Of a stretch of 64,000 bases of DNA, positions 8,955-63,873 are shown in pieces. The stretch lies in IMG/VR virus record IMGVR_UViG_3300021431_000090, positions 43,086 to 107,085 of that record. One strand, written 5' to 3'. This DNA is from a virus. Lineage: Duplodnaviria; Caudoviricetes. The stretch's first letter is position 1, and the number at the start of each line of letters is the position of its first letter. The notes below the pieces were generated by a model. That model did not search any database. It had not been told where the DNA came from and saw only the letters and a list, made by a program, of their open reading frames with translations. The position numbers and the translations under genes were made by a program.

Positions 8955-9244
8955 AGTTCTAACAAAGTTCTAACCAATGTGGTTTCGAATTTTTCCAAGA
9001 ATTCTTGGCTTTTGTGAATACAGCACAAATTTATCAGGTTTTTTAATATAACAGATTAAACAGTTTTTGTGTAGATTACACTAAATTTAAATGGATTAGA
9101 AATCGGACGTTGGGTTCGGGACCAAGAGGCCTCGGGTTCAAATCCCGACACTCCGACTGAAAAGTACCTGATTTCGTAAGAAGTTGGGTACTTTTTTCAT
9201 GCATTTCTGAAGAGTTCTAACAAGAGTTCTAACAGAAATTCTAA
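8955..9244. other. attP: attP: core matching the 3' half of tRNA-Pro(CGG), with arm-type repeats
   Basis: GGTTCGGGACCAAG...GGTTCAAATCC...CTCCGAC at about 9113-9157 with no D-arm or 5' acceptor strand; AGTTCTAAC at 8955, 8966, 9213 and 9225; adjacent to the integrase stop. Confidence 0.85.
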
Positions 9245-9253
9245 AATGTACTG

Positions 9254-10411
9254 CTACAAAAGCTCTGCACATAGGTCTGAGCCGACCGTTTTTAAGTGCT
9301 GATTCGTCAAATGTCCATAAATATTGCCGGTTGTTTGGATATCAGAATGACCAAGCCACTCCTGAACATCTTTAAGATTATGCCCGGATTCAAGCAATAT
9401 ACTCGCACACGAATGTCTTAAATCGTGTAGCCGTATATCCGGCATACCGTGTCGTGCAAGAATCTTATGAAAAGTTTTCGTGATATAGTCTGGCGAGTAT
9501 GGCCTCCCGTCATCCCATTTGAAGACATAATCATTTTTAACGTATCTGTCGCCGAGAAGCTTTTCATTGTTCTCCTCTTTCGCTTTCGCATCAGCGAATA
9601 TCTTCTCGATCTCTGGCGTCATTGGATATGTTCTGTAGCTATCGTCTGTCTTGGTGTCGTCTTTCTCTACCAGCTTGCTGCATCTGCACACGACGTGTTT
9701 GATTACGACGCGCTTACTTTCAAAGTCTAGACTATCCCATTTTAGTCCAAGCAGTTCGCTTCTCCTTAGTCCATACAACGCCGTGACGATGATAAGAGGA
9801 GCGAGAGGCTCGTCTTTGACAGCTTTAAACAGCTCCTTCATTTGGGCTGACGCATAGAACGACGGTTTAAATTTTTGTTTCTTCGGCCGTTTGATTCTGT
9901 CGACAGGATTATCTTGGATACGCTTCTTGTCTACAGCGTCGGCACAAATCACACTCAACACAGTGAGGTAATTTCTAACCGACTTATTCGATAGCGAACC
10001 GCCTGTTTTAACATTGCCGTATTCTGAGAGATGACTAGCAAATTGTTGTACCGCTTCAGGCGTTAAGTCCTGTATGTCAACCTTGTGCTGCTTGAAATAT
10101 GGGACGATATGTTTTTCGACGCCTATCTTATAGCCTTGATATGTGATTGGGTCGTAAATGTGCTCGGCGTATTTAATCCATTCTTCAGCATAGTCTGCTA
10201 CAGGAATCTTTTTCGTTGCCAATACTTCCGACGATACATCACGATACTCTTCAAGCGTATCATCGAGGAACTTCTTTGCGGCACGTTTGTTATGCCCGTC
10301 AATGCTCAGCTTGGTGGATATCCATTTCTGTTTCCTATTGCCATTCTCGTCCGTAATATTGAGTACGGCATAGTACATATTCTTTTTAATTTGTAAGCTT
10401 CCTGTTATCAT
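9254..10411 (-). CDS. int: phage integrase (tyrosine recombinase)
   Basis: YGLRRSE, KT..S.R, RLHDLRHS, LGHSDIQTTGNIY; N-terminal arm-binding domain; GGAGG SD before MITGS. Confidence 0.95.
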   Translation of the reverse strand: MITGSLQIKKNMYYAVLNITDENGNRKQKWISTKLSIDGHNKRAAKKFLDDTLEEYRDVSSEVLATKKIPVADYAEEWIKYAEHIYDPITYQGYKIGVEKHIVPYFKQHKVDIQDLTPEAVQQFASHLSEYGNVKTGGSLSNKSVRNYLTVLSVICADAVDKKRIQDNPVDRIKRPKKQKFKPSFYASAQMKELFKAVKDEPLAPLIIVTALYGLRRSELLGLKWDSLDFESKRVVIKHVVCRCSKLVEKDDTKTDDSYRTYPMTPEIEKIFADAKAKEENNEKLLGDRYVKNDYVFKWDDGRPYSPDYITKTFHKILARHGMPDIRLHDLRHSCASILLESGHNLKDVQEWLGHSDIQTTGNIYGHLTNQHLKTVGSDLCAELL

Positions 10412-10476
10412 ATTACACCTCCGTTGAACGGAAGCCATGACATATATGTATTTCGATTATAAATGACGGAGGAAGA

Positions 10477-10659
10477 TTATTCAAGTACAGAGACAGCCAC
10501 AAACCTAATCACCTCTGATTTTGGAATAAGGTATGGTTTACCAATATCGAGTCGTTTAATTTTCTTTTCTTTTACAAGCTGATATGCTCTATATTTTTTA
10601 ACGTGCAGCATTTCTGCTAGTTCATCTATGTCAACTACATCTTTAAATTGTTCAAACAT
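10477..10659 (-). CDS. xis: excisionase-like HTH protein
   Basis: DVVDIDELAEML.V....AYQLV....I....IG..YLIPK; upstream of int. Confidence 0.8.
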   Translation of the reverse strand: MFEQFKDVVDIDELAEMLHVKKYRAYQLVKEKKIKRLDIGKPYLIPKSEVIRFVAVSVLE

Positions 10660-11833
10660 GCACTTCTCCTAAAAAAGCTGCAGAAATTTTATGACTTTGT
10701 GTAGTTTTCTGCAGCTATTTTCTATTCATTTGTGTGTCCCTATCTTCGAAATAAGGCTCTATTTAAATGCCTATCGTTTCTCCTGTTCACAATGTCTTCA
10801 CCAGACGTTTCATTGTGCCCATCTACTCCGATAGGCATTAAAGACATTTAAGTTACTGACAACATATAACCAAAGTTTGCGCTATTTTACATATTGCTAT
10901 GATTATTAAACAGATCCCAAATAATGTAGAATCAAACTGTCCATTTAAATTACTACCAATTTACTTTCATAGAAGCTATGACTTGAGCAATATTAAGTAA
11001 CCAATCATTCCCAGTATTATTTGTCTTACTTCTGAAAAATTATACATATCGTCTGGGTCAAGGTCCTTCAACATCCACTTCGCATAATCAATCGCTTCAT
11101 CGATTTTTTCGTTTTCCATACTTCACTCCTAAAGTTCCCATATTCCAACAATAAGAATACAACAGGTATAAAGGGTAAATACCAACATTGAACCTGCTGC
11201 CACTTTATGAATCCAGTGTCTCTCATTGTCTTCATTGACAATTGATGAACCCACTAACAGCGGTGTCAGAAAAAATAGCGTATACCACAGTTTTGCCACA
11301 ACTTCCACAATATCCATACGTTCACATCAATCTGGATAAAAAGCAATGCTACTGTATATGAGGCCTTCATACTGGAGAACATGATATTCAATATCTTGCG
11401 ATTGTTCTTGATTCATAGACATTTCAGAAACTTTACATATAGAATTATCCATCTGTTTTATTGCAAACTCATTGTAACTTGTACTGTTCGACTGCTTTTC
11501 ATTTTCTTCATCGTACCTCGTACGAGGGCAAACATAGTAACGGCATCTGCCATACATTATACAATCTTCGCACATCATATTATTTTTGCCACTTCTCGAA
11601 TACCAAGTCTATAGTATCTATTACACACTTATGTTTTCAATCATCTTCATCGACCTTCGGACTATAGCAGCTCATAAACGGGTCGCTAGGCTCGCAGGCA
11701 CTACACGGTTTGCCGTCACCAGAAGACGGCGGCTCAAATACACATCCATCACACGACCATGTATTTTTTGTTACATGGTCGTTTTCTTTTCTCTGTTTCA
11801 TAAGTTTGTTAAATATGTCAAGCTCAAGGCTCA

Positions 11834-12457
11834 TTAGTTATCGAACCAGAAGACAATTCTGAAATTCTTCGCATTATCATTATACTTCTTCTCTTTTTCT
11901 TCTTCACTTAAGAAGTCCCAGATCCAGAACTCTTCTGCCATCCTTCCTTTAATTGCGTCCACAAGGCCGTCTAACACAGAGTATGGGACAAGCCAGCTTC
12001 TCTGTACATAGCTTTTGTCAGAAGTCCATCTGCACCATTCTTTCGGGATCGTGCCGAACTCATCAAGATAGAACGCATCTGTGCTGGAAATCATCCCGGT
12101 TACTTTATAAAATGGCCGTTTTGCTTTGTATGCGAATAATTCGCTAGCGAGAAACCAACTATGTGAATGCCCATCTGCTCCCCACCACTCTGACTCTTCC
12201 TTGACCTTTTTGCTTACGTCAACAGGCAGCCCTCGTGGATCATCTATTGGCGTTACGTCTCCGCTGTTTCTAACGTCAGCGAGTGTAGCGAATAGTGTAT
12301 AATTTCTGTCGCTGAATATAGGCTCTACGATCCACTCTCTCTCACGAGTGTATGTATCATCCTTCTCATAGTATGGATTCAGTTTAAAATGATCACAACA
12401 CCACCATTTGCCGTCAGGCAGCTTACATTCTGTGTAAACGTGGATATCGCATCCCAT
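11834..12457 (-). CDS. conserved phage hypothetical protein
   Basis: MGCDIH...RNY.LF..LADVRN...PRGLP.D...D.HSHSW...RIVFWFDN. Confidence 0.75.
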   Translation of the reverse strand: MGCDIHVYTECKLPDGKWWCCDHFKLNPYYEKDDTYTREREWIVEPIFSDRNYTLFATLADVRNSGDVTPIDDPRGLPVDVSKKVKEESEWWGADGHSHSWFLASELFAYKAKRPFYKVTGMISSTDAFYLDEFGTIPKEWCRWTSDKSYVQRSWLVPYSVLDGLVDAIKGRMAEEFWIWDFLSEEEKEKKYNDNAKNFRIVFWFDN

Positions 12458-12686
12458 ATGTAATACTCCTATTCTTTTGTAGTGTGCACTGTGAATACTG
12501 ACGAGAGCAGTATTAGGATAAGCCATACTCCAAATGAAACTTTCCATCCAAACCACGACTGTCCAAATGCACACATAATAAGATACAACATACCTGTTGT
12601 AAGCAGGTAACTAAGTGCTAACCCACCAACCAGTATGATTATTATCAATGCGGCTGTAATCCAGCCGCTATGATCTTTCTGACTTT

Positions 12687-13136
12687 TCATGATCCTGTTG
12701 ATCCAAACCCTCCTTCGGCGCGTTCAGTTTCATCTAATTCATCGACAGTTATGAACTCCATTGGCATATATTCAATAACGACAAGCTGGGCGATTCGCTC
12801 ACCGCCAACAACCATCTGTTCTACTTCGGAGTCGTTATGCAAAGCGACAATTATCTCACCTCTGTAGTCGCTATCGACAACACCAACAGCGTTAGCAGGT
12901 CTGAGTCCGCGTTTCGTTGCTACTCCGCTCCTGGCGAATATAGCACCGAAGTATCCTTCTGGAATACTCATCGCAAGCCCTGTATGTATCTTTACTGTCT
13001 GATGCGGCTTGATTATGACGGATTCGTTATTATCCATGCATGCGTACAGGTCGTAGCCAGCCGCATACTCCGACCCGTGAGTAGGTACAACAGCGTTTTC
13101 GTTCAGTTTCTTTACTTTGACTTCAGACTTCTGCAT
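12687..13136 (-). CDS. dut: trimeric dUTPase
   Basis: AGYDL, RSG, GVVDSDYRGE, RIAQL, R.EGGFGSTG. Confidence 0.97.
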   Translation of the reverse strand: MQKSEVKVKKLNENAVVPTHGSEYAAGYDLYACMDNNESVIIKPHQTVKIHTGLAMSIPEGYFGAIFARSGVATKRGLRPANAVGVVDSDYRGEIIVALHNDSEVEQMVVGGERIAQLVVIEYMPMEFITVDELDETERAEGGFGSTGS

Positions 13137-14473
13137 TAGTTTTCGTCTCCATCGAATACAATTATTGTATATATGTTATCAATAAGCATCTCACATGCTT
13201 CCTGGCTATTATATGAACCTTCATAATAACCGCCAAGAAGTTCGTTGATGAGACTAAGTTTAATATCATCGCTCATAGTTTAAGTTATGTACTCCTTAAA
13301 ATCTGTAATTATTATTGTTCTGTGAATATATGTATGCCAGCCCAACCATCAGCAAGACCCAGATTGCGAAGTGTATCGTCTGCATATTGGATTATCCTTC
13401 TGTGTATCGCCAAATGATATCTTCCAGCTCATCAGTCCAGTCTATAGGGAATGATTTGTCGGCAATCATATAGCGATGCATCGCGTCAGCAATCTCAATA
13501 AGTCTCTCTGTGTCTCGAATTTTTCTGGGTTTGATCCCAAGAGGCGGCTTCACTCCTACTGTTTGCTTTCCCTGTTCATTCGGCATATTCAGTATCTCCA
13601 TTCCGATAATCATCCTCTTCTTCCTCCGTATGTATATAGGTACTACGACGTAATTCTTCATCAAATGCTTTCATCTCTCTGCTAAATATCTTATCCGAAA
13701 CATCGGAATACTCTGATACTATTTTTTGAAATTCGCTAATACGTATCTCATCATTGAGTGTTTTATTTTTTAGCTCAGAGAAAAGATTTCTAGCCTCAAC
13801 GCTTGTCATTGAATCATTGAAATATGACATCGCCTTCATCTTCCTCTTCAAATATGTAGTATTCTATTTCCGCTCCGCAATTCGTACAGTGGCACGTGTG
13901 TATAATGCCTGGCCTTGCTATACCATAATCTGATGTATCGTAATCGGCGTCCCAAATTACGGTTTTCTCGCCGCAGTGGAAGCATTCGTACATATTTATT
14001 CTTCTTTTGCCGTCGCGCAGAGCTTCATGAAATCTGGCTTGGATTTTTGATGGATGATACTCTGCATCTTTTCAGAAGCAAGCTCATGTGTTAAAACGGG
14101 ACGTCCGAGCAACTCCTCAAGATATTGGTATGCATATTTTGTATTATCCCCGCTTAGCATACAGTACCCTGTATAAGCTTCTACAATTGCGCATTCTCTT
14201 ATAGTCATTCAATCAATCCTTCATACCCGAAGCTATCGAGTAGTCCTTTTATGTTGCTTTTAAATAAGTACGTATTAAGCATGACGCTTACACAGCCATC
14301 CAGATTTAGTATGCTTACACTGTCGATATCCATATCATACGTCTGGTCGCGATCTGTGTCCCCATGGTCAAGGCATATGTGAATATCTGCATCACCGTGT
14401 CCAGCCTCAATAACCCCGTTAAGGAACCCAGCGAGCTCCTTAACGGCCATCTTATTTGATTTAGACATAAGTC

Positions 14474-35643: not shown

Positions 35644-36456
35644 TTATCCGGCAACTTCCCGTTCGAGGATGTCGTTCCCTGCAATGTATTTATAACCTCT
35701 ACTACCAAGATCAAGTGATTTATATGCATCCGATATTTCCTCGGCGTCAAGGCCAATATAAGTAAGCGTCTGTAGCATAGTCGCATGCCCTAGCATTTTC
35801 TGGAGAAGCAGAAGCCGTCTCGGCTCGTTGTTTCCACGAACCATCATCCAGTAGCAGAATGTTTTCCTCAGCGTATGAGTAGAAATCTTGACGTTTAAAT
35901 CAAGATCAGAAGCAATTCCCTTTAAGATGTATTCAATTGCGCGAACAGACAGAGGTTCGTTCTTATTCCCGCCATGATTTGACTCGCTCCTAAACATGTA
36001 GTCGCTCAGCGAAACGCCTGGTGTGTGCTCAAGAAATAGTGTTACAGCCTCAATCACAGCATCATTTACTGTAATATACCTGTTCTTTTTCCGTGACCTT
36101 GTATTCCTCGTTTTCTTCTCAAAAACCGGGAAGCTTTCCTTGAAGGTTAAGTTCTCATTAATAAGGTTAGAAAACCGCAGCATTCTTAAGTCGCTTGCCC
36201 TCAAACCAAAGTTGATTCCTACTATGAATAACATATTGTCTCGCCATCTCTTGTTCTCTATGAGATACTCAGTCACTCTGTAGATATCATCAATGTTTTT
36301 GATTGGTTCGGCGGCATGTTCCGGGGCAATATCGCTCTGGATTTGCTCTGCGGCTGGAGCGATAAGGCCTTGCGCAAGCTTCCTCGAAGTATTGTTTTTA
36401 AGAGCAGAAACATTAATTGTGTTTAAACGTGCTTCTTTGAAATCTACTATCTCCAT
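35644..36456 (-). CDS. tyrosine recombinase (catalytic-domain type)
   Basis: GLRASDL, EKKT, HTLRKTF, LGH....TL.YIG. Confidence 0.9.
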   Translation of the reverse strand: MEIVDFKEARLNTINVSALKNNTSRKLAQGLIAPAAEQIQSDIAPEHAAEPIKNIDDIYRVTEYLIENKRWRDNMLFIVGINFGLRASDLRMLRFSNLINENLTFKESFPVFEKKTRNTRSRKKNRYITVNDAVIEAVTLFLEHTPGVSLSDYMFRSESNHGGNKNEPLSVRAIEYILKGIASDLDLNVKISTHTLRKTFCYWMMVRGNNEPRRLLLLQKMLGHATMLQTLTYIGLDAEEISDAYKSLDLGSRGYKYIAGNDILEREVAG

Positions 36457-45331: not shown

Positions 45332-45940
45332 TCAATGCTCATCAAATATGACCTGCTCCCCTTTCATTAATTCCCAACATCCGCCAGTTGTCGCAGCACA
45401 CTTGGCGCAATTCCCGCCATATCTTGCACACGGAACTGCAGATGATCTGGCTGTTGTGGAACCATCTCGATATTTTACATGCGCTTCCGGTAATCCATAT
45501 GGGTTGATCATTTCCAAACCTTTCCACCCGCTAAATATCAGGTGAAGATTTTCAGGGATTTGCACACCGCTAGCGATGAGATCATTTACATACTCGTATC
45601 TTTTTGTGAAGCACAGCATCTGGCAGTGCTTATTACGCTCGGCGATCTCAACCATTTTACGAAGGTACTTCTTGTCTGGAATATCACCGGACACATGCCA
45701 ACGAAAAAATCGAGACACCATGATGGCTGCCTCGACTTCTCTGAAGTATTTATCTGGATCACTTTTATATATCGCGTAATTATTTTTGTATGCGTTTCTT
45801 ACATTTGGTCGCAATCGTTCAAGCTTCAGTGCGTAGCACTGTTTTGCACACGGTACATTTCCGCATGTTACAACTGCTGGTAATGAAACGCTTGGGATAA
45901 ATCCCATTTTAGAATTTCCTTTTGAAATAGAAACATTCAT
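45332..45940 (-). CDS. Gp88-like Cys-rich protein
   Basis: GNSK.G, LP...TC...PC...CYA, FRWHVSGD. Confidence 0.65.
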   Translation of the reverse strand: MNVSISKGNSKMGFIPSVSLPAVVTCGNVPCAKQCYALKLERLRPNVRNAYKNNYAIYKSDPDKYFREVEAAIMVSRFFRWHVSGDIPDKKYLRKMVEIAERNKHCQMLCFTKRYEYVNDLIASGVQIPENLHLIFSGWKGLEMINPYGLPEAHVKYRDGSTTARSSAVPCARYGGNCAKCAATTGGCWELMKGEQVIFDEH

Positions 45941-46689
45941 ATAATTCGCTCAATCCTTTCGTAAATACACTCATATTGCGGCGATCCGTACCAATCCCTG
46001 TGATAGTGCCCAAAAATCCAGCGCTTAAAGCTATTGTCTGTTGCTATCTCATTGAAGTACTGAGTCTCAATATCCGGCTTTTTAAAGCCCATTGACGAAG
46101 CAACGAACTGAGGACAACAATGAGTTATAATGAAATCTACTATATTCCTGCATTCGCTAAGTGTTTCCCGCCCACGTTGCATTTCTTCTTCCGACGGGAG
46201 TTCCTCTTTCCACCATGAAACGTGGTTGATACGAAACATTTTCCCTGCGAGATACCATTGTTTGATAGCGTCATAGAACTCCTTCGCGCTTCCGAAATCA
46301 TTGAGGTCAAGAATCCCGTCGCGAATGTCATGACTTTGTGCACCGCCGAAACACCAGAACTTTTTCCCATCAAACTCAAATACATACCCCCGCATCAAAT
46401 GATATACATTAGCCTTAATTTTGTGTGCTTTCCCGCCGTGGAAATCCACTACCTTAAATTCACTGTACAATCTGTCAAAATTTTCATGGTTGCCATCGAC
46501 AAAACAAATTGTGAACTTCTTCCTTGACAACCATTTCAACCACCATTCTTCTTCATTTCCGCCGTTCCAAATACCAAAATCCCCGCAAACGATCACAATG
46601 TCGTCGCGGGTCATTTCTTTTTGATCTGGGAAATTTTTTGTCGAGAATCTATGGTATTCACCGTGGCAATCACCTGTCACATAAACCAA
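45937..46689 (-). CDS. calcineurin-like metallophosphoesterase
   Basis: GDCHG, CGDFG, DGNHEN, THC, FGHYH. Confidence 0.92.
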   Translation of the reverse strand: MVYVTGDCHGEYHRFSTKNFPDQKEMTRDDIVIVCGDFGIWNGGNEEEWWLKWLSRKKFTICFVDGNHENFDRLYSEFKVVDFHGGKAHKIKANVYHLMRGYVFEFDGKKFWCFGGAQSHDIRDGILDLNDFGSAKEFYDAIKQWYLAGKMFRINHVSWWKEELPSEEEMQRGRETLSECRNIVDFIITHCCPQFVASSMGFKKPDIETQYFNEIATDNSFKRWIFGHYHRDWYGSPQYECIYERIERII

Positions 46690-47166: not shown

Positions 47167-47793
47167 TTACGCAATAAACTTTTCTGCGTAATCTGCAATT
47201 ACATCCTCATAATCCTCGTCCACATCAAACGGGGGTGTATAGAATACCTCTGTATTCACCATATACGAATCAATTGTTTCAGAGATCTTATCAGCGTCAG
47301 TTGCAAGCCTGCGAGCCATTGCCTTATCTGCTTTTCGATTAAACAATTCCTCACCGGTTGTCTCAATCGTATATGTATACGGAACTTGATTTCCCTCTAC
47401 ATTAAATCTGTAGCCTGTGCCATTGCTCTTGGATTTCTTCGGCTTATTTTCAAGCATATATTTAAGTGCGCTGACTGCTTTTCTCCTGAATTTATTTGCC
47501 TCGATCTCAGCGTCGACATCCTGCGGTAAGCCGCGCTTTGCATTCCCGATCGCAATGCTAAGCATTTCTTTTTGCTCGATTAGATTTTCAATAAAAGAAA
47601 CCACAATATCATTCTTGATAAACTCATCGACGTCAACTACCTCTTCGATATCCGCATCTTCTGGGTTTACCTCTGACTTCTTGTGCAGTCTTTTTGTTAG
47701 AATGCAGTGTTCAGGTCTAATGATACTGCTGCAAGCTCTCGACATAATCCGATCAAGATAGCTCTGGTATCTAAACGCTTCCTTTAAATTCAT
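47167..47793 (-). CDS. conserved hypothetical protein
   Basis: MNLKEAFRYQ...GY.FN.EGNQ..Y; GGAGG SD. Confidence 0.75.
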   Translation of the reverse strand: MNLKEAFRYQSYLDRIMSRACSSIIRPEHCILTKRLHKKSEVNPEDADIEEVVDVDEFIKNDIVVSFIENLIEQKEMLSIAIGNAKRGLPQDVDAEIEANKFRRKAVSALKYMLENKPKKSKSNGTGYRFNVEGNQVPYTYTIETTGEELFNRKADKAMARRLATDADKISETIDSYMVNTEVFYTPPFDVDEDYEDVIADYAEKFIA

Positions 47794-48244
47794 AAAAATC
47801 CTCCAACGTATATATTAGACGAGTTTATTCGTCGTCTACGATTTCTGTACCATCGCACACCCACGTGTACGATGTATCGCCATCAAGATATACTGTGATA
47901 GATGCCTGCCTAATCATCATATCCTCAATCTTGTTTTTAAACCAATTTATGATGCTTTGATAGTCATAATAGTCACGCAAATCACCAAAAATAGATACAG
48001 TATATCTTGCAAGGATGTTTTCCTCATCGGTTTCCCAAACCGACATCTTAAGCGAGCCTTCCGAGCCAAGCGGGAGATATTTTTCTGGATGATCTTCCGC
48101 ATCATGCCATACTTCTATATCTGAATCAAAGCGGACTTCTTTCCCGAATTCCTTTTCGAAATCCATTTTCCCGAAACTGTCTACTCTTGCTATTGCTGCA
48201 ACGTGAGTCCAAAAAGACATACCAAAAGTCTCCTATTTTTATAT

Positions 48245-50315: not shown

Positions 50316-50843
50316 CTACCCCTCACATCTCTGTATCGTATACCCGCCGAATTCTACTGGTTTGTCCGATCCGCGAACCTTCTGGAAAATTTCCTTGACT
50401 TTTGCAGCGCCCGCCGTAAAGCATTTGTTTTTCAAGATGATTTTTTGTGCGGACTCCATCGGGAGCTTTACCCCGTTCAATATCACATATACAATCCCAG
50501 CATCTTGTGGGTTATTTTGTCTTGAATCATCGAGAGCCCGCTGGTTATTTTCCTCGGCAGTAACCCATTCAAGATTCGATAAGGAGTTATCTCGTGTGTT
50601 ATGATTGATGTGATCGACTGTGAGCTTCGCATAATTTGGAACAGGTCTCCACGCCTCAAGAACAATCCTATGGACTTTCTTACCTTTGTAGAAAAGATAT
50701 CCATCACTTGCGCATACACGCTGTGGTTCCCCATTAACATCTTTAATATTCCCCATGTTGGAAACATAGATATCAAGCGGTAGATAATACTTCCACCGCT
50801 CAATGCAGATATGTAGCTTTGGCGTAAACCTCCCAAATTTCAT
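50316..50843 (-). CDS. HNH endonuclease (NUMOD4/HNH_3-like)
   Basis: VSN.G, VHR.V..A, VDHIN....DN...NLEWVT..EN. Confidence 0.85.
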   Translation of the reverse strand: MKFGRFTPKLHICIERWKYYLPLDIYVSNMGNIKDVNGEPQRVCASDGYLFYKGKKVHRIVLEAWRPVPNYAKLTVDHINHNTRDNSLSNLEWVTAEENNQRALDDSRQNNPQDAGIVYVILNGVKLPMESAQKIILKNKCFTAGAAKVKEIFQKVRGSDKPVEFGGYTIQRCEG

Positions 50844-52281: not shown

Positions 52282-53445
52282 TCAAGAACTTAAATCTTCC
52301 TTCATCATCTGCTTAATGCTGCCACATCCCAGCTTCTCGCTAAGATGAGCAACCATCTCATCAATCTTTGATCCCTCCACCATCTTGTAATAGTTATAAA
52401 GACCATTAAGTACTTGAATATCATGCAATTCCCAGCTATTCCCCGTGTTTCTATCTCGCACGTAAGTTGTCAGCATTGCCTGGAAATTCCTTTTATTCTT
52501 ATACCCGATTGTGATCTCATTGTTCGCATTCAGCATTACGCCAAGGTTCCAATTTCTACCAGCGGACGAGCCGTATCTTGTTTTTGCGCTATTAATAGTG
52601 AACGGAGCGTTGAAACTATGCAAAGTCTCTATGATCGCATTTTCCACTTTGCGATAATCAAAATCAAACTTGGATGAGATTAGGAAATCATCTGCATACC
52701 TTGTGTACACATATCTCTGTTTCCCAAAATCTCTAAACATATTTGTAAGCTTGAAGTCCACAGGGATCATCATAATATTTGTGATCAGCGGAGATATCGG
52801 TGTCCCTTGCGGAAGACCTCCGTCTAATATCGCAAGATCAAGTGCATCTTCCAAAGCTTTTTTACCACGCTGAGTCTTTACCACTTCTGAAAACGGGAAC
52901 ACCATCGAAAACATCTGCATGATAAATTCCAGAGTAGTACTTCCGAAGAAGTTATGAAGATCATATTTGCCAAACCATTTGCTCTCGTTTTCCTGATGCC
53001 GTTTGACCGAATCGATGGTGGATCTGTTGCTGATGTACGCAAAAGCTGAAGTATGATACAACGCATTGAAATCATGCTCAAACAGGCTTTTAAGATACCT
53101 GAGTGATGCCATAAGATCATCTTTCGGGGCATTTATTTCGCGCAATCCGCCGGATTTTTTAGGAATGAAGAACTTTTTATAAAATTCGTGTCTGTCTTTG
53201 CTTTTGATTTCCTTTACAATAGCTGAGTCATTGAAATCCTCAAGCTTTTTAACAAGCCCAAGAATTTTATATGCATCGAACCCGAGTCTTCGCATCATGT
53301 ACTCGGTCACACATTCGCGCTCGTATGTACGAGTATTTGTCATATTCTCATTAATAACGGCAGGCCGAGTGCTTGTTTGGAACAAGAACTCTTCCAATGT
53401 CATCTGGTGATACATTGGTGGCTGTTTAACTACGATGTATACCAT
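52282..53445 (-). CDS. retron-type reverse transcriptase
   Basis: IPKKSGGLREI.AP, AFAY...RS, SVKRH (NAxxH position), D..NFF.S, LPQGTPISP, YTRYADD, NLG at the VTG position; no maturase/endonuclease domain. Confidence 0.9.
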   Translation of the reverse strand: MVYIVVKQPPMYHQMTLEEFLFQTSTRPAVINENMTNTRTYERECVTEYMMRRLGFDAYKILGLVKKLEDFNDSAIVKEIKSKDRHEFYKKFFIPKKSGGLREINAPKDDLMASLRYLKSLFEHDFNALYHTSAFAYISNRSTIDSVKRHQENESKWFGKYDLHNFFGSTTLEFIMQMFSMVFPFSEVVKTQRGKKALEDALDLAILDGGLPQGTPISPLITNIMMIPVDFKLTNMFRDFGKQRYVYTRYADDFLISSKFDFDYRKVENAIIETLHSFNAPFTINSAKTRYGSSAGRNWNLGVMLNANNEITIGYKNKRNFQAMLTTYVRDRNTGNSWELHDIQVLNGLYNYYKMVEGSKIDEMVAHLSEKLGCGSIKQMMKEDLSS

Positions 53446-53471
53446 TTAAATTCCTCCCTCTTTAATTATGG

Positions 53472-53829
53472 TATAACTGTAATCTATAAGGGGATGACTG
53501 CTGGGACGCGCACTGGGCACACCGGTCGACGTCATCGTGTGGCGTGCTTAATTCAGGAAAAACACAGTACAATAATCGGGTCAAAGCCAAGAGTTCAAGA
53601 GAATTTAGGGGAAATTAATATGATATTTCAAATGTAATTCTATTGACTTTCCTTGTGAATTATGTTTTATAAGCCCTTTGATCTGAGAGTAGCTCTGAAC
53701 CCAGCAGGCTGCCTCCAGAGCGCTGCGCCTTCCTGGATCTCCTCCTGCGGCCTCTTGTACTTATCAAATTATTACTCCCGCGAAACGCAAGAAGCATCAC
53801 AATGTTGTGATTATTGCATTACAGTTATA
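53472..53829 (-). ncRNA. retron-like msr/msd ncRNA, cassette 1 (RT-adjacent)
   Basis: 12-bp closing IR TATAACTGTAAT (53472-53483 / 53818-53829); G at 53817 opposite G at 53484; two msr-like hairpins; directly upstream of the RT. Confidence 0.85.
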
Positions 53830-53832
53830 AAA

Positions 53833-54129
53833 TTATGGTTTTAAATTTCTAATTTTCCTACGCTTATTTAAGAACCTCTCACGTTCTAAGATATTGAATA
53901 GGCTCTTACCATGATCTGATATGTACATATTCCTTAACATCCGCTCACAAAATCTTCCTCTAAAGAAATCTTTGATTTCCTTTTCAGAATAATTTCCCTC
54001 GTATCTTGTTTTCCGAGCGGTTACACCACGGATGTAAAGATCGCGGTAGTCGTCAGCTGCTTTTTGTATAATTGCCATAGCAAGCCGAACCGCTCCGCGA
54101 TCTCTCATAGTCTCTATTGATTTTTCCAT
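53833..54129 (-). CDS. hypothetical protein
   Basis: LAMAIIQKAADDYR...FF pattern; start overlaps the E1 stop. Confidence 0.7.
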   Translation of the reverse strand: MEKSIETMRDRGAVRLAMAIIQKAADDYRDLYIRGVTARKTRYEGNYSEKEIKDFFRGRFCERMLRNMYISDHGKSLFNILERERFLNKRRKIRNLKP

Positions 54130-54800
54130 TAAAACACGTCAAGGGTACCGTCAAATCCGTCGATCTGACCGAATTTCCAAATCCCTTCACCTTTCACGAA
54201 TTTAATGTAATTGTTTACGCACATGGCGCAGATCAGACGAACTGTCGTCACGACACCGAGCGTAATTCCGCATGCACTTAGAGGAGTTTCCTCTTTCGCT
54301 TCTTCATGCGAGAACTGCATGGAGTTCAGAAGATCCTGCTTCATCTTCGGTTCGCTCCAGTCAGCTCCATACATCTGCGCCCCTGTGAGCGCCGTACGGA
54401 CATCGAAAATCGCCTTTACGAACGGCTGATTCATATGCTGCTCCACAAATTTCCTGCGAAGCTCAATATTATCCGGGCAAAGAAAAACATAACCAGAAAG
54501 CATTTTCCCCTGCCACCCCTCCGGCTTAATCTTGATGGAATCTTTCGCATCGGGGTTAATTTCGAGGATCAGATCCCTCAAAGCTTCCACTTTGAGCTTC
54601 CCGATATCCTGCTGGCGGAACATCTGATTAACTATGTTATGCTTTTCGACCTTATCGAAATCATACAAGGTCATTTTTGTTACGCCGCACCTCGCGAGAT
54701 TTTCAGCGATAGTTGAACCAACAGAACCGCATCCGATGATATGAATCATCGTACTGTCTTTTTCAGGCTGGAAAAATTCATAACTCTTGCTGAGATCCAT
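54129..54800 (-). CDS. ThiF/E1-like adenylating enzyme
   Basis: IIGCGSVGS, DFD.VE..N..NQ, G..KV, D.R, SACG candidate catalytic Cys. Confidence 0.92.
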   Translation of the reverse strand: MDLSKSYEFFQPEKDSTMIHIIGCGSVGSTIAENLARCGVTKMTLYDFDKVEKHNIVNQMFRQQDIGKLKVEALRDLILEINPDAKDSIKIKPEGWQGKMLSGYVFLCPDNIELRRKFVEQHMNQPFVKAIFDVRTALTGAQMYGADWSEPKMKQDLLNSMQFSHEEAKEETPLSACGITLGVVTTVRLICAMCVNNYIKFVKGEGIWKFGQIDGFDGTLDVF

Positions 54801-54812
54801 AGATATTCCTCC

Positions 54813-55322
54813 TTATTCCGCGACTAATTCCATCGTCGCACGAAGCCCGTTACCAAGAGCTTCGAGTTGCTCTGGTGTTAATGTCTGGACACAATTCCGG
54901 CTCTCGACGAACATCTCCATCACCGTGCAGTCCTCTTCTTCTGTCGGTTCAATTTCATATCGCTCTTCTTCTGAAAGCTCGCGTTCTTCATCTTCATCAT
55001 CGAGCATTTCATCCCACGCCGCGTTATAATCGGCCCAATCAAGAACCTGGTCTTTGATGTCCTCAAATTCTATCGGTTTCAGATCACCATACTCATCAGA
55101 CATATAAAAATCATATCCAGCATCGTCATCGAAATTGGACAGAATCCCATAAAGATCTCTCCAGGTGTTGTTCCTCGCAAGATCGACGAGTTGGTCTTCA
55201 ATCCACTCATCGTAATAATCAGGGCTATACACACCTTCAAGAGTACTGCATCCTATTTCATCACAAAAGTCCTGCAGGTCATCGATATCCCTGACATCAT
55301 TAATGAATTCATCACGAGTCAT
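54813..55322 (-). CDS. highly acidic hypothetical protein
   Basis: 169 aa, strongly D/E-rich; inside the Ubl operon. Confidence 0.75.
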   Translation of the reverse strand: MTRDEFINDVRDIDDLQDFCDEIGCSTLEGVYSPDYYDEWIEDQLVDLARNNTWRDLYGILSNFDDDAGYDFYMSDEYGDLKPIEFEDIKDQVLDWADYNAAWDEMLDDEDEERELSEEERYEIEPTEEEDCTVMEMFVESRNCVQTLTPEQLEALGNGLRATMELVAE

Positions 55323-55350
55323 AAAATCCCCTCCCTATTACTCGTTTTGA

Positions 55351-56286
55351 TTATTCCATATACCCGAACGGGCCGTAAGGATCATCTAAATCGTCGTAGT
55401 AATAACCCCCATATTTTTTTAATGGTGTCGTTTTTTTCGACTTTTTCTTTTCGATCCTCTTCCATTTGTGGTCTTTCTGTTTTTTTTCGGGCTCAACCTT
55501 TTTGGTTTCCTGTTTCACAGTCTCAACAGGCTTTACCTGCTGGACTGGTTTTACTTGCGGCAGCTGGCTGTTTACCGCAGGCTTGTTATACACACCGCCA
55601 TAATTTGAATATCCATAGTTATATGTCGGAGCGACATACGCAGGTTTATCTGTGACCATTCCCTTTGCTTCGCGCAAGAACTTTTCAACGCCGAGTTCGT
55701 CCTCGATTACCCTGACCGTTACGTCAGACGTCTCAAACATGATGTTTTTTGCCATGTCATAGATCTTATACGTATATTCCCCACGTTTGTTGTATATCAT
55801 GAAGATATAAAACATCGTGTCATCAAGCTGCGAAAGAAGAGATTCATACAAATCGGTGTCTGTTGCAGACGGTGTAACGCCCATGTTAACATGAGAATGC
55901 CCCTGCATTCTGAGATTGTTAAACACCTCATCATCCTGATTGGCCAGCCACATCTGATATTTAATCTGATCTGTATTGACGGTTGCTGCAGAAACTTCCT
56001 GCGGATAAACCAGAATATCTGTGATGTAATATGCATCTTTTGTCATATCTTCGTCACGATACGCAATTCCGTGCCAACCGACCTCTTTATCGCATTCCCT
56101 GATCAGTGCCTGCATTTTCAGCCATGCGATTTCATTGAAATATACTGTACAAGGCCGCTTAGTACTCGTAAGCGACCTTGAAAAATTTACCTTGCCATCA
56201 GCAAGCTTAGCAGACTGAAGAATATTTTCAAATTCTTCACGCCATTTGTTGATACATGCATCCGTTATCTTGATTTCTTTAGCCAT
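55351..56286 (-). CDS. JAB/MPN+ metallopeptidase (deubiquitinase-like)
   Basis: EVGW.G, then HSH.NM...PS..D. Confidence 0.85.
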   Translation of the reverse strand: MAKEIKITDACINKWREEFENILQSAKLADGKVNFSRSLTSTKRPCTVYFNEIAWLKMQALIRECDKEVGWHGIAYRDEDMTKDAYYITDILVYPQEVSAATVNTDQIKYQMWLANQDDEVFNNLRMQGHSHVNMGVTPSATDTDLYESLLSQLDDTMFYIFMIYNKRGEYTYKIYDMAKNIMFETSDVTVRVIEDELGVEKFLREAKGMVTDKPAYVAPTYNYGYSNYGGVYNKPAVNSQLPQVKPVQQVKPVETVKQETKKVEPEKKQKDHKWKRIEKKKSKKTTPLKKYGGYYYDDLDDPYGPFGYME

Positions 56287-57739
56287 TTACAGATTCCTCC
56301 CCTTTCTGCTTTTTGAGAAACTCAATTGCTGCTTTAGTGTTCACAACGCTTCCGTCAGGAAGTTCAAAACACTTATTGTTTACCGAACTATCACTGTTAC
56401 CGCAAACTCTCTGCATGAACTCATTCATAACAGTCCAGTCTGCGAAATTCAGGCTCTTGCATGATGCGATGCACTGCTCAATTGCCCCGATATAGTTATG
56501 ATCCTGGAGGAACATATTGATCTCAGCCTGGTACGCACCAAGGCATCTATACTGATCGATATGCGGATTCGGCATACAATCGTTGCAATCACCATCATAT
56601 GCATAATGTCTAATACCCTCGACGTTACCATCAATTCTAAACGTATAGGCCGCGCAGAACTTAATCTTGATAATCTGGTCTACAAAGACCGCATTCATCA
56701 AGAGTTTGATATCACTATCAGAGAAAACGCCATCATTCCATCTATATACGAAGCTGCGTTTATTCCCGATTGCGCTTACCGCCTCATCCTCGTCAAAATA
56801 CTCGAGGTAATCCTTGACGACAAATTCCATCGCCAGACCATCAACGCTCGACAATGTGAGCTTCTTATTATTAATGAAATAATGCATTATCTCATCATCA
56901 TTTTCGCCACTTGCAAGCTTTTCAGCAATCCCACACAGATGTGCATCAAGGTCACGTTTTCTTCTCAAAAGGCTTCCGATTTCACGATTGTATGACTCGA
57001 TAGAATCAAGAATCGAAGTGATATCATGCTCGATCTCTCTCTTGCGTGTCTTTTCAAATCTAAGCTCAAACCCGGACAACATACTCTTAATTCCTGCGGA
57101 TCTGAAATCGTACTGTTCTGCAATTTTCTTAAGGCATGCCTCATATTTTTCAGAGGTCTTCTCCCTAAGAGAATTGATAAGCTCCATTCCGTCTGCGGAT
57201 ATTCCCTGACTCGGGTCGAAATACCACGGGAGAAAAGCAAAAATCCCGCACTGTAGATAATGCATCCGCCGATTATCCATGTTATCCGTGAAGATCAGAA
57301 CACTCTTTGTCTCAGGATTGATATAACAAAGGACTCTGAATACCTTGCGATAAAAATCCGTTACCTTTGTGATTCGCTGATAGGCTGGAAGAATCGTACC
57401 AATATTATTCTCAATTGCATTGAGATATTTGTCTACCACTTCCTGCATCCCAGAATAATTCCGCAGGCAAATAGTGTTTCTAATGCTGTCCATCGAGCAG
57501 AGGATATCTCTTGCAAGATTTTCCTCTGTTTTTGAGCGTGCAGAGCCAGCAGTCGGGTTCCTCGCATCATAAGAAAAATAAATGATGTCGCCATCATTCA
57601 TACGAGGAGTTACCAAAGCCCTTAAAGTCGAAATAAATGTCTGATCCCTTCCGACGCTATCGCCGTAAATCTTCCCGTGAAAGTATTCTTCTGCGAATCG
57701 CGTTGTCAGGGGCGTCTGTTCAATCGCGTTCCTGAACAT
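56279..57739 (-). CDS. large protein with coiled coil and C-terminal prokaryotic E2-like domain
   Basis: PNPHI....CLG motif followed by helices and SLN..D; lies between Ubl and JAB. Confidence 0.65.
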   Translation of the reverse strand: MFRNAIEQTPLTTRFAEEYFHGKIYGDSVGRDQTFISTLRALVTPRMNDGDIIYFSYDARNPTAGSARSKTEENLARDILCSMDSIRNTICLRNYSGMQEVVDKYLNAIENNIGTILPAYQRITKVTDFYRKVFRVLCYINPETKSVLIFTDNMDNRRMHYLQCGIFAFLPWYFDPSQGISADGMELINSLREKTSEKYEACLKKIAEQYDFRSAGIKSMLSGFELRFEKTRKREIEHDITSILDSIESYNREIGSLLRRKRDLDAHLCGIAEKLASGENDDEIMHYFINNKKLTLSSVDGLAMEFVVKDYLEYFDEDEAVSAIGNKRSFVYRWNDGVFSDSDIKLLMNAVFVDQIIKIKFCAAYTFRIDGNVEGIRHYAYDGDCNDCMPNPHIDQYRCLGAYQAEINMFLQDHNYIGAIEQCIASCKSLNFADWTVMNEFMQRVCGNSDSSVNNKCFELPDGSVVNTKAAIEFLKKQKGEESVNG

Positions 57740-57773
57740 ATCAAATTCCTCCCTAATGAATTTAATAATTTAA

Positions 57774-57855
57774 TACCGGCACCGGGAATCGAACCCGGAC
57801 GGCTAACGCCAACCGATTTTAAGTCGGTTTTGTCTGCCTATTCCAACATACCGGC
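57774..57855 (-). tRNA. tRNA-Leu(TAA)
   Basis: ACCGA-CTTAAAA-TCGGT; long variable arm; GGTTCGATTCC; no encoded CCA. Confidence 0.9.
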
Positions 57856-57981
57856 AAATATAGCGGCGCAAAGAAATCCCTTCATATTAGCTTGCCATCA
57901 TATTTCCAGAATTGCCCTGCGCCGCAGGCAATAATTACTGGTTTTGAATTTCAAGGCTCCCAAGAATGGGAGCCGTATGTA

Positions 57982-58209
57982 TCATGCATTATCCAGCTTC
58001 TTGATGCTGGACAGGAAGCAACGCTCGGTAATTCCGAACTGTGCAAAGGACTTATCGAGATCGCCGGGGCCGAGGGTGGAGCCATCAAGCATTGTCATGC
58101 CGGTGGAGTAATCGATTTCCTCATCCTCGAGAACCTTGCGGATGGTGGTGGAATCCTCAACAACGACGGTGTTGCGCTTCATATTATTGCTAACTTTAAC
58201 CTGAATCAT
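57982..58209 (-). CDS. ubiquitin-like beta-grasp protein
   Basis: 75 aa; IQVKV...TVVV....TIRKVLE...LDG..L...DLDKSF..FGI...FLS; ends KLDNA. Confidence 0.7.
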   Translation of the reverse strand: MIQVKVSNNMKRNTVVVEDSTTIRKVLEDEEIDYSTGMTMLDGSTLGPGDLDKSFAQFGITERCFLSSIKKLDNA

Positions 58210-58311
58210 GGTATTTCTCCTTTAAATTATAAATATTTTTTAATTTTTTTGGCCGGATTAAGGTTTGGGCAAAAATGTTTGGGCTACCGCTTTCACGATA
58301 GCCCGATCACA

Positions 58312-58710
58312 TCACTGAAGTTCGGAGATGCTATTGAGGATCTCTGCTTCCTCAGTTTCAATTTCCGCGAGCACTTCAGGGATCTTGCTCTCAATCTTAT
58401 TGAGAAGCAGGACAGACGGGCCGTATGTATCTGCTACATACTTCTTCACGTCTCCTTCGACGCCACTCAGGACAGTCGTGAGACAAGCGAACTTGTTCTC
58501 ATCGCGGGTTTCCTTGGCGAATTCCACGCCATAGGGGCTGATGCTGCCGTTCCCGGAAGAGACACCAACACGGAACACCTGTTCCTTGTTTTCCTCACCG
58601 CCCATCAGGACGAGAGCTTTCGGGCGATACTTCTTGACCTTCTTGTAATCTTCCAGCTTCACTGCGGAAGTCACGATCACTGCGTCGCCTGCGAGTACGA
58701 TTTTTGCCAT
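58312..58710 (-). CDS. hypothetical protein heading the Ubl operon
   Basis: AAGGA SD; codon usage like the neighbouring Ubl gene. Confidence 0.7.
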   Translation of the reverse strand: MAKIVLAGDAVIVTSAVKLEDYKKVKKYRPKALVLMGGEENKEQVFRVGVSSGNGSISPYGVEFAKETRDENKFACLTTVLSGVEGDVKKYVADTYGPSVLLLNKIESKIPEVLAEIETEEAEILNSISELQ

Positions 58711-58871: not shown

Positions 58872-59465
58872 TTATGCAAAGAAATAAATCGGATCGTCCG
58901 CATCATCAAAATCGATAAGATCATACGGATATTCCTCGTACTTTTCGGTCCCATCAAGGTCTTCGAGATACATTGGTCGTCTGATATCAGACCCCCATTT
59001 CAGCGCAAGAAATTCGAGGAAGTGTTCCTTACAATCTACGAAGAAATCCTTTTCCCTCGCTTTCCCGTATTCATCGATGTTGTTATCCAGAACAACACTC
59101 AAGAAGTCGTACAGGGATGCATCGATTTCATCTTCGCGAGCCTCGATTTCCAAATCCTGAAGCTCTTCTTCAGTGATGCTGTCTTCTTCTTTTGTATGTG
59201 CCATTTTCGTCACCTTGTTATAGATTGATGACACCACTTCCTCACAATCCTGTTTATCCCAACAGGACTCCTCATAGAAAGCATCGTCGTTAACACATAC
59301 AATAATGTCCGGCTGTATCTCACCACTTTCCCCCACCGCAGTGAGATAAACCACCACATTGATGTCTGGATCTGTTGCGATCTCTTGAAGATCCGTGAAC
59401 AGCTTGCCTTTTTTCTCTTGGAATAAATCCCACACCTTATTTGCTTCGATTTCAATCTTAAGCAT
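58872..59465 (-). CDS. acidic hypothetical protein
   Basis: 197 aa ORF with GGGAGG SD. Confidence 0.7.
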   Translation of the reverse strand: MLKIEIEANKVWDLFQEKKGKLFTDLQEIATDPDINVVVYLTAVGESGEIQPDIIVCVNDDAFYEESCWDKQDCEEVVSSIYNKVTKMAHTKEEDSITEEELQDLEIEAREDEIDASLYDFLSVVLDNNIDEYGKAREKDFFVDCKEHFLEFLALKWGSDIRRPMYLEDLDGTEKYEEYPYDLIDFDDADDPIYFFA

Positions 59466-59813: not shown

Positions 59814-60104
59814 TCATATTAACTTTGTTGCCGCTCGTTTTAATCGCTCACCGGCGATAAAACAAGGCACCCTTTTTGCTGGAATTTCCACTTTCCCGTC
59901 TTGCCAATCCCTACCAATCCGAGAAGCCCTATCTTTTATTTCAAACGTACCGAACCCAGATAACTGAACACGATTCCCGTGTGCTAACTCATCTTCAATA
60001 ATCCCGAGTAACGAATTAAGAACAGCTTCAACATCTACAAGATGAAGCCCGGTATCATCCCTTATTCGATAGATTATGTCCGATTTGATTACTGTTTCCT
60101 GCAT
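59814..60104 (-). CDS. hup: HU-like DNA-binding protein
   Basis: V.LSGFGTF....R..R.GR....G..EIPA..VP.F.AG..LK. Confidence 0.9.
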   Translation of the reverse strand: MQETVIKSDIIYRIRDDTGLHLVDVEAVLNSLLGIIEDELAHGNRVQLSGFGTFEIKDRASRIGRDWQDGKVEIPAKRVPCFIAGERLKRAATKLI

Positions 60105-60647
60105 CGAAAACCTCACATATAACGATATATCTTCGTGATATTATCGCTTTCCTTACGTTTCATGCTCGGCCTATCCATTGCCTGCATCAAGAAATGCCAG
60201 ATTAAATACCAGCCAGCGACAAGAATCACTGCCCAGCTAAACACATTGTCAAGCATCCAAATTCCTCACTTTCCGCAACACTCTCGGCCATACATAAGAT
60301 ACAAATCCCTTGTCGCCGGATTCCCTGATTTCCACTAAACCACACCGTTTATCGACTGATAAGACAGAACAGCGTTTCCCGAAATAATCGACAGAATCGC
60401 CGTTTTTTAACTCTAAAGCATCGTAAATGCTCACAAAAACCCTCACTTTCTTTCATTTTTGTCGGGAACCTGACCGGGTGGCAAATGCCCATACTGTACA
60501 GACCCGGTCAGACGTTTCCCTTTATCGTCCCGCTTCTTTGAGTAATTCCTCAATTTCCACAAGGGAGCCGATAAAAATTTTGCAGAGTTCCATTTCCATG
60601 CGATGAACAAGCTTTGCCATAACGATCCTCTTTTGATTTTGAATTCC

Positions 60648-63460: not shown

Positions 63461-63873
63461 TTTCTTTCTCCCTTTATAAATTATATTTGAGCCTTTGGCT
63501 CATTAGAGCAGACGAACGATCACGCTCGCCTGCCGTGTATGAACCAAAGCCCCATAGGGCTTAAATTTCGTTATCAATTACTCTGCATGCCCAACCATAT
63601 CCGCTTTTCGTGCTTTCTCATTCCTTGGAATCCATACGGCACCCTTGGGTGGATACTTGAACTATTACGGAAACAGCTTTGCAAGCTTTGTAACCCGAGC
63701 GCATTTTCAGTATGTGCACTCACACCATACCCCTAATTTGTCATCTAACTCGGGTTAACTCTTGGGGTGTTCACAAGCCGAACCATAAGCCTAACTCTTA
63801 TGCACCAAGCGCCGTCTTGATTTACAAGATAACCTTTTCTTTATAGTCTTTAAGGTAGACTCGAGAGTTTTGA

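Follow-up and report, generated by a model that had tools for sequence, protein, structure and literature searches.

Can a bacterial virus own a complete ubiquitin-like protein-conjugation pathway, and what ties such a pathway to the retron-type reverse transcriptase (RT) encoded next to it? The question is raised by a minus-strand gene series in the right-hand 64 kb (positions 43,086 to 107,085; hereafter the window, 64,000 nt) of IMGVR_UViG_3300021431_000090, the complete 107,085-bp record, with direct terminal repeats, of a gut or rumen phage belonging to the Caudoviricetes. Retrons consist of an RT, an msr-msd non-coding RNA (ncRNA) and an effector. Prokaryotic cascades complete with E1, E2, ubiquitin-like protein (Ubl) and JAB protease have so far entered the literature as defences of bacteria against phages (Bil, CBASS, Bub), whereas the genes considered here are core genes of a virus. 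The locus is understood from our analysis as a real, complete and very widespread phage-borne Ubl cassette of a new variant type, tightly co-inherited with a retron RT. We consider it probable that it represents a phage-borne ubiquitin-like protein-conjugation cassette, inherited as a block with that RT. Our literature searches turned up no description of an E1-E2-Ubl cascade encoded by a phage, nor of a retron with a Ubl cassette next to it. The features of the locus, in window coordinates and in minus-strand order, are the following.

58872-59465 (-): h197, open reading frame (ORF), first in the minus-strand series ahead of h149
58312-58710 (-), ATG at 58710: h149, ORF; partner protein, directly upstream of the Ubl gene
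58281-58304 (-): putative terminator-like hairpin between h149 and the Ubl gene (consensus scan: 10-pair stem with 6 GC pairs, then a T-run)
57982-58209 (-): Ubl, ORF of 75 aa with C-terminus KKLDNA; β-grasp, ubiquitin-like
57773-57856 (-): tRNA-Leu(UAA), between the Ubl and E2-like genes (ARAGORN; Rfam 51.1 bits)
56279-57739 (-): E2-like protein, ORF of 486 aa with motif PNPHIDQYRCLG
55351-56286 (-): JAB/JAMM metalloprotease, ORF of 311 aa with the invariant motif HSH-x7-S-x2-D
54813-55322 (-): acidic protein, ORF of 169 aa; by composition 54 Asp+Glu, isoelectric point 4.05
54129-54800 (-): E1, 223 aa, single ThiF/UBA5-type adenylation domain (Pfam ThiF)
53833-54129 (-): basic 98-aa ORF, phrog_7024 (PHROG 4.6e-6)
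53465-53836 (-): retron-style ncRNA, bracketed by a1/a2 inverted repeats
52282-53445 (-): retron-type RT, 387 aa (RVT_1 9.7e-19; PADLOC RT_II-A 3.5e-45)

This order, from h149 through Ubl, tRNA-Leu, E2-like, JAB, acidic protein, E1, small ORF and ncRNA to the RT, had been read by a first-pass annotation of the sequence; it holds, and all genes so named are ORFs. The arrangement is not a product of chance, because the same order recurs in ~100 distinct viral or metagenome-assembled genome (MAG) contigs. Both gene overlaps described earlier are real, the E2-like and JAB genes sharing 8 nt and the E1 stop and small-ORF start having TAATG in common. The ncRNA abuts the small ORF as annotated, and only its placement 4 nt past the stop was in error, in that the outer repeat arm overlaps the stop codon, a trivial difference. 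The cassette is located in a leftward early-type operon.

Conservation of the cassette and co-inheritance with the RT

Loci were collected through searches seeded with the E2-like protein and the RT in IMG/VR, together with one search of GTDB genomes and one of INPHARED. The 235 loci obtained reduce to 105 distinct sequence groups, and all of them come from one related family of ~60-140-kb Clostridia-associated phages. E1, E2-like gene and JAB are present together in 95 of the 105 groups. The RT lies downstream in 93 of these 95 complete cassettes, the remaining 2 stopping at the contig end, and a cassette without RT was found in none of the groups having at least 8 kb of downstream sequence. 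Viewed from the RT, 96 groups are evaluable upstream, with all three enzymes present in 93 and two truncated. The independent assortment of RT and Ubl operon that the first-pass annotation had suggested looking for among relatives is thus not seen (93/93 evaluable cassettes have the RT), and co-inheritance with the retron RT is strongly supported.

Within ±10 kb, RT, E1, JAB and E2-like gene are each found in 84/85 loci and most flanking genes in 0-20, so that cassette and RT form an island of conservation. The h149 gene is present in 88/95 complete cassettes. Even in the most distant member, MT835544.1, whose E2-like protein is 22% identical, the order h149, Ubl, E2-like, JAB, E1, RT is kept. 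The region of the window itself gave no match to INPHARED phages by megablast. From this shared gene neighbourhood we infer that cassette and RT may be functionally coupled; strict co-inheritance would then offer a possible first link of reverse transcription to protein tagging.

The Ubl, its partner h149 and the fusion junction

Searches of Pfam, PHROGs, NCBIfam and PADLOC returned no informative family for Ubl, h149, E2-like or acidic protein. The Ubl fold was approached through structure. A model of the natural Ubl-h149 fusion, built from an alignment of 41 natural fusions (pLDDT 88.4), shows Ubl residues 1-69 as a ββ-α-ββ-β β-grasp (pLDDT 84-94), for which the Foldseek matches at probability 1.00 are SUMO/Smt3, ubiquitin, ISG15 and archaeal ubiquitin; BilA is also among the structural matches. 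Fold model and Foldseek matches bear out the earlier assignment of the small protein to the β-grasp class.

The C-terminus of the Ubl is K-x-(D/V/H)-N-A, or that with 1-3 extra residues, across 37 unique family sequences, the penultimate Asn being nearly invariant; the sole exception is the Ubl of L018, with the terminus ...KAD. The Asn-Ala end challenges the rule of a Ubl ending in Gly. The Ubl is fused N-terminally to h149 (~205 aa) in a subclade comprising six of the contig groups, with three viral loci showing the fused form, among them the ORFs L059:4945-5562 and L061:6462-7079; the protein search adds at least 120 clusters of this kind (P0131-P0250). The Ubl comes first in these fusions, the reverse of the gene order in the window. 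At the junction, the terminal Ala of the Ubl is followed by h149 residue 2 (numbering of free h149), with nothing between. Since the junction falls exactly at the conserved Ubl end, cleavage by the JAB protease after ...DNA (Asp-Asn-Ala) is suggested, and it would free Ubl and h149 with native-like ends. The natural fusion is thus a ready cleavage substrate. There exist documented precedents in the JAB trimming of BilA tails (Bil preprints 10.1101/2023.09.04.556158 and 10.1101/2023.09.26.559546) and in the JAB cleavage of the BubAB Ubl fusion (Ye et al. 2024, PMC11601596). Lys is invariant at four residues from the Ubl end, which implies a four-residue tryptic remnant, diagnostic for target mapping by mass spectrometry.

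Regarding h149 itself, the Ubl domain saturated both structure lists, the Atlas model was poor (pLDDT 0.44) and the Atlas search uninformative, and no evidence of a new fold was obtained from them.

Two GC-rich hairpins without T-tracts occupy 57908-57975 (-), between the Ubl stop and the tRNA. Together with the terminator-like hairpin at 58281-58304, they make the Ubl gene look insulated at both ends. A tRNA-Leu(UAA) is placed ~30 nt before the E2-like gene in 13/25 relatives scanned (L010, L011, L012, L017, L019, L025, L028, L050, L052, L054, L055, L060 and L068), and two relatives, L004 and L005, have tRNA-Met in its place. The tRNA may be a processing point for RNase P/Z that divides the Ubl message from the enzyme message. 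Within the tRNA array of another related phage (L056:17703-18121), ARAGORN calls a tmRNA gene with the tag AVEDTPEKQFSL.

The E2-like protein

The AlphaFold2 model of the 486-aa protein (pLDDT 88.5, pTM 0.53) has three parts: an N-terminal α/β domain (~residues 1-190), a 55-residue coiled helix (224-277) and a C-terminal α/β domain, in which a helix, two strands, a helical insert, two strands, a loop and three helices follow in this order. An invariant N391-x-H393-x5-C399-x-G401 is present, differing in the order of His and Asn from the H-P-N-x7-C of canonical E2s. As modelled, the C-terminal domain looks like a UBC/RWD-like domain with Cys399 as the candidate catalytic residue. The Atlas structure neighbour outside the protein's own family is RWD (TM 0.45), and a viral cluster with partial Prok-E2_D annotation is one of its Atlas feature neighbours. 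The family profile against PDB sequences gave chance coiled-coil matches only, and the Foldseek list, when re-examined, contained only coiled coils and, for the N-terminal domain, weak MoaB/MogA matches. The first-pass view of the large protein as an E2 with UBC fold was not refuted and is retained as a candidate assignment; neither the profiles nor Foldseek against the PDB added a match.

A word search returns 827 clusters of this family. Searching exhaustively with the C-terminal domain expands it to 2,268 clusters at 50% identity; the ~490-aa architecture is shared by nearly all of the top 150, and no bridge to a named E2 family was found among these top 150 of the profile search. The E2-like domain (>2,200 nameless clusters at 50% identity) thus represents a large unannotated protein family of gut/rumen phages.

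The E1 and JAB enzymes

The E1 matches Pfam ThiF (PF00899) with 83 bits (cut-off 28.1; 2.4e-23) over residues 17-206 as a single domain, and its best PDB matches are UBA5, Uba1, MoeB, MccB and Cap2. Invariant across 22 relatives are the GxGxxG (G23/G25/G28), D110 as the Mg-binding Asp, R115 and C177. Cys177 falls within a few residues of the position aligning near Cys250 of UBA5 and is a candidate thioester Cys. The best NCBIfam match is the ThiS adenylyltransferase ThiF (3e-22, under its cut-off). PADLOC E1-E2 models match the Rossmann region (5.7e-18) over ~70 residues only. For the JAB protein, profile support is weak (PADLOC JAB 5.6e-4), and Glu68, His130, His132, Ser140 and Asp143, invariant in 23 sequences, make up a full JAMM site. 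Its C-terminal tail is of low complexity, Lys-rich and then acidic-aromatic.

The retron RT, its ncRNA and the gap after E1

Membership of the RT in the retron clade (PADLOC RT_II-A 3.5e-45) and the adjacent ncRNA bracketed by a1/a2 repeats are both as in retrons; against the NCBIfam retron St85 family the RT scores 163.4 bits, under the cut-off of 235. The bracketing 19-nt inverted repeat (53465-53483 / 53818-53836) is 84% complementary with arms 334 nt apart, and a 37-nt stretch of the ncRNA (53759-53795) recurs ~4.7 kb away at 92% identity.

The space between E1 and RT varies among relatives. A protein of 250-268 aa with weak similarity to DUF6273 (5.1e-5) fills it in 38 of them, replacing the 98-aa ORF (examples are L019:13155-13961 and L059:8654-9439), and a DUF3848 protein is another insert. 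The 98-aa ORF was considered as a cassette member and rejected, only 3 relatives carrying it; it is variable filler between E1 and retron RNA. A scan for promoters and terminators revealed no terminator-like site between E1 and RT and no significant excess of promoters (16 promoter-like sites vs 23.9 expected). Judged by sequence, the region is compatible with co-transcription of E1 and RT, and in the mechanism proposed below cassette and RT would probably share one transcript.

Comparison with known systems

BilABCD types I and II are bacterial anti-phage Ubl conjugation operons (Hor et al. 10.1101/2023.09.04.556158; Chambers et al. 10.1101/2023.09.26.559546), and the cassette matches their four parts with a β-grasp Ubl, an E2-like protein with a candidate catalytic Cys, a JAB protease predicted to trim the Ubl tail and an E1. 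Short C-terminal overhangs on some Ubls are likewise shared. The cassette differs in being phage-encoded and part of a core gene set, and its Ubl ends in Asn-Ala instead of the universally conserved Gly. BilD has an inactive and an active adenylation domain plus a Cys-bearing insertion, unlike the single 223-aa domain of the E1 here. The E2-like domain makes up the end of the 486-aa protein and has His before Cys (N-x-H-x5-C), whereas BilB has Cys138...His151. Finally, the conserved h149 partner and the adjacent retron-type RT distinguish the cassette from Bil.

With Cap2/Cap3 of type II CBASS the cassette has in common the E1/E2/JAB triad beside a nucleotide-polymerising enzyme and the PADLOC E1-E2 match to the E1 Rossmann region (~70 residues). 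However, Cap2 is an E2-E1 fusion acting on the adjacent CD-NTase; separate genes and a dedicated β-grasp Ubl are found here, and Pfam and PADLOC detected no CD-NTase among the cassette proteins. Type I Bub (6E) offers an analogy in its Ubl made as a natural fusion precursor whose reactive C-terminus is exposed by a JAB peptidase (Ye et al. 2024, PMC11601596). Its chemistry is distinct in the Ser/Tyr oxyester, the DUF6527 protease and the E2 as fusion partner, as compared to candidate Cys177/Cys399 and the h149 partner of the cassette, and Pfam scans of the cassette found no DUF6527. PRTRC places a Ubl/E1/E2-like/JAB set on mobile elements (plasmids, integrative and conjugative elements), but TIGR03736 (PRTRC ThiF) reaches only 25.8 bits vs a cut-off of 144.75, no other PRTRC NCBIfam model matched, and the ParB context is absent. 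The cassette is thus not Bil, Cap2/Cap3, Bub or PRTRC, because the defining features of each fail. By analogy, it may be likened to Bil in its working, but it lacks the Gly end, an E1 of several domains like BilD, and the arrangement of Cys before His seen in BilB.

Retron classification normally reads a conserved neighbour set as the effector. The locus resembles retrons in its retron-clade RT, the upstream ncRNA with a1/a2 repeats and the one conserved set of neighbour genes. It departs from them in being phage-encoded, in the RT score under the curated St85 cut-off and in Ubl cassette neighbours that fit no known effector class. The sole widely cited precedent for a phage Ubl with JAB is lambda TAPI/gpI Ubl with the JAB-NlpC protein gpK (Iyer et al. 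2006, PMC1779556); that pair is without E1 or E2, lies in the tail gene cluster, and its Ubl has a C-terminal Gly.

Proposed mechanism

From the folds, catalytic motifs, conserved C-terminus, natural fusion junction and co-inheritance seen in these loci, we infer a course of cleavage, thioester transfer and target modification. The Ubl would be made free or, in some relatives, as the Ubl-h149 precursor, and the JAMM protease would cut after the conserved ...K-x-D-N-A to expose the carboxylate of the terminal Ala. The minimal ThiF/UBA5-like E1, probably a homodimer, would adenylate this carboxylate and may load the Ubl onto Cys177. The Ubl would then be handed to Cys399 in the UBC/RWD-like C-terminal domain of the 486-aa protein, whose N-terminal α/β domain and coiled coil could provide a built-in, E3-like substrate selector. 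Placement of the Ubl on lysines of target proteins would complete the cycle, and the JAMM protease might also undo the tagging. A further step would be a functional tie to the RT. On the reading that the block is one functional unit, it would constitute a phage-borne retron class with a Ubl conjugation cascade as its partner, characterized by a Ubl that ends in Asn-Ala and an E2 with its substrate selector in the same protein. RT/msDNA would direct or gate the tagging, or tagging would switch the RT as Cap2 does to CD-NTases. We regard this extension as doubtful.

Weighing the alternatives

Several observations stand in the way of the conjugation cassette as we read it. The Ubl tail is without Gly in the 37 unique sequences, and Gly is universal in Bil and classical Ubls. 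None of the Pfam UQ_con, RWD and Prok-E2_A-E or PADLOC E1-E2 profiles reaches E 0.1 on the 486-aa protein, and Foldseek with the whole 486-aa model vs the PDB gives nothing at E < 0.001. The E1 is devoid of UFD, CYS domain and inactive adenylation domain. Concerning the RT, between ~0.3 and 6 kb separate it from E1, many unrelated inserts taking up the space and reaching 6 kb in two contigs, and one group (L070/L166/L167) has h149, Ubl and RT at the locus without E2, JAB and E1. The records of this group are only 16-25% complete. The 30-kb fragment L070 carries, at 9182-13546, a 55-residue E2-like remnant, a longer RT ORF (469 aa) and a cysteine desulfurase, and no E1 was found elsewhere on this contig, whose record is only 25% complete. 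Moreover, within a single phage clade, shared ancestry would produce the same co-inheritance as functional coupling.

The main rival to conjugation is a sulfur-carrier pathway, suggested by a NifS-like cysteine desulfurase gene of the phage (41270-42433 (-); NifS 5.5e-117, DndA 6.4e-93, PF00266 1.5e-82), present in 4/4 relatives that are ≥90% complete and immediately following the RT in L070. In this pathway the Ubl would serve as a carrier of ThiS/MoaD type, adenylated by the E1 and receiving sulfur from the NifS/IscS/DndA-like desulfurase to give the Ubl thiocarboxylate. The JAB would mature or recycle the carrier, as in CysO/Mec+ or QbsE/QbsD, and the 486-aa protein would use the sulfur to thiolate either a small molecule or a nucleic acid (phage tRNAs, DNA, the retron product). 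Sulfur pathways with JAB, E1 and Ubl are well established (Iyer et al. 2006, PMC1779556). ThiF-like E1, MoaD-like fold and JAB permit such a reading alongside the desulfurase, and the top NCBIfam match of the E1 is the ThiS adenylyltransferase already mentioned. However, known carriers end in Gly-Gly and not in Asn-Ala, most relatives have 10-30 kb between desulfurase and cassette, and no gene for a rhodanese, PP-loop ATPase, PAPS-reductase/DndC or NifU was found in the genome. The C-terminal domain of the 486-aa protein looks UBC/RWD with an invariant Cys, and the resemblance to MogA is weak and its fold common; we therefore consider the sulfur carrier quite improbable. Chemistry like that of MccB, in which Ala would be removed and the E1 would then act on the conserved C-terminal Asn, giving a nucleotidylated protein and not a conjugate, we judge more remote still. 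MccB (1.6e-7) and PaaA (1.2e-6) are among the solved relatives of the E1, and the near-invariance of the penultimate Asn fits as well, but the similarity is limited to the common Rossmann region, natural extensions and fusions start after Ala and not after Asn, and both the E2-like protein and a β-grasp substrate are foreign to MccB systems.

With conjugation preferred, the role of the RT and the side on which the tagging acts have to be considered. That tagging is real but independent of the retron, both being old core genes of one phage clade and neighbours by chance in a conserved backbone, is a reading to which we give a little under an even chance. The derivation of all loci from one related phage family speaks for it, as do the unrelated inserts tolerated between E1 and RT (DUF6273 protein, DUF3848 protein, 98-aa ORF) and the L070 lineage, where the RT is found next to Ubl and h149 without the enzymes. 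Furthermore, we know of no retron type, within the classification of Mestre et al. 2020, that has E1, E2 or JAB partners. Conversely, the six-gene block is conserved in 84/85 loci amid a very variable region (flanks 0-20), the gene order persists at 22% identity of the E2-like protein, and 0 evaluable cassettes are without the RT. The first-pass proposal of a phage-side protein-tagging system is well supported as regards tagging, while "phage-side" needs the qualification that the cassette might serve to protect a lysogen. Its further suggestion, that the cassette replaces a missing retron effector, is hypothetical. Viral ownership would make Ubl tagging a tool of the phage in the conflict, or one at the disposal of the lysogen. 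A prophage defence module, with Bil-like tagging of superinfecting phage proteins in the lysogen and the retron as second defence or sensor, is unlikely in our judgement. It would agree with the anti-phage function of Bil, type II CBASS and retrons, with the classification of two relatives as proviruses by IMG/VR (L070 is classed so), with the occurrence of the locus on one MAG contig of 358,930 bp and with four tyrosine-recombinase genes in the genome, which suggest a temperate lifestyle or DNA-inversion switches. The temperate lifestyle is itself only putative, though, and nearly all members of the clade have the genes, as core genes instead of variable morons. They lie within a long co-directional operon with tRNAs and ribozymes, and a promoter signal of their own is not significant in the scan reported above. 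The tyrosine recombinases (Phage_integrase), in coordinates of the complete record (G000), are:

9906-10430: tyrosine recombinase
47625-48077 (window 4540-4992): tyrosine recombinase
52381-52932 (window 9296-9847): tyrosine recombinase
78828-79382 (window 35743-36297): tyrosine recombinase

Accessory and neighbouring features

The acidic protein was likewise rejected as a cassette member and counts as accessory, since it was detected in only ~38/85 loci, often at another place in the locus. Upstream of the cassette, a HU-type DNA-binding protein (Bac_DNA_binding, 9.7e-22; 59814-60116 (-)) is kept in 46/85 loci. Downstream of the RT, 45332-46689 and 50316-50843 (-) encode a GP88-family protein, a calcineurin-like phosphoesterase (36 loci) and an HNH endonuclease. 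Near the genome end, at 63759-63829 (-), lies an Rfam RAGATH-16 RNA (67.1 bits vs a gathering score of 65.6). Acidic-aromatic C-terminal tails recur in several proteins of the block, for example ...DDLDDPYGPFGY and ...DDADDPIYFFA (JAB tail, 55351-55650; h197 tail, 58872-58940), and the E2-like protein has the C-terminus ...EEDDLF in some relatives (tails noted in L004-L009). Reminiscent of SSB tips, these tails may be common docking motifs.

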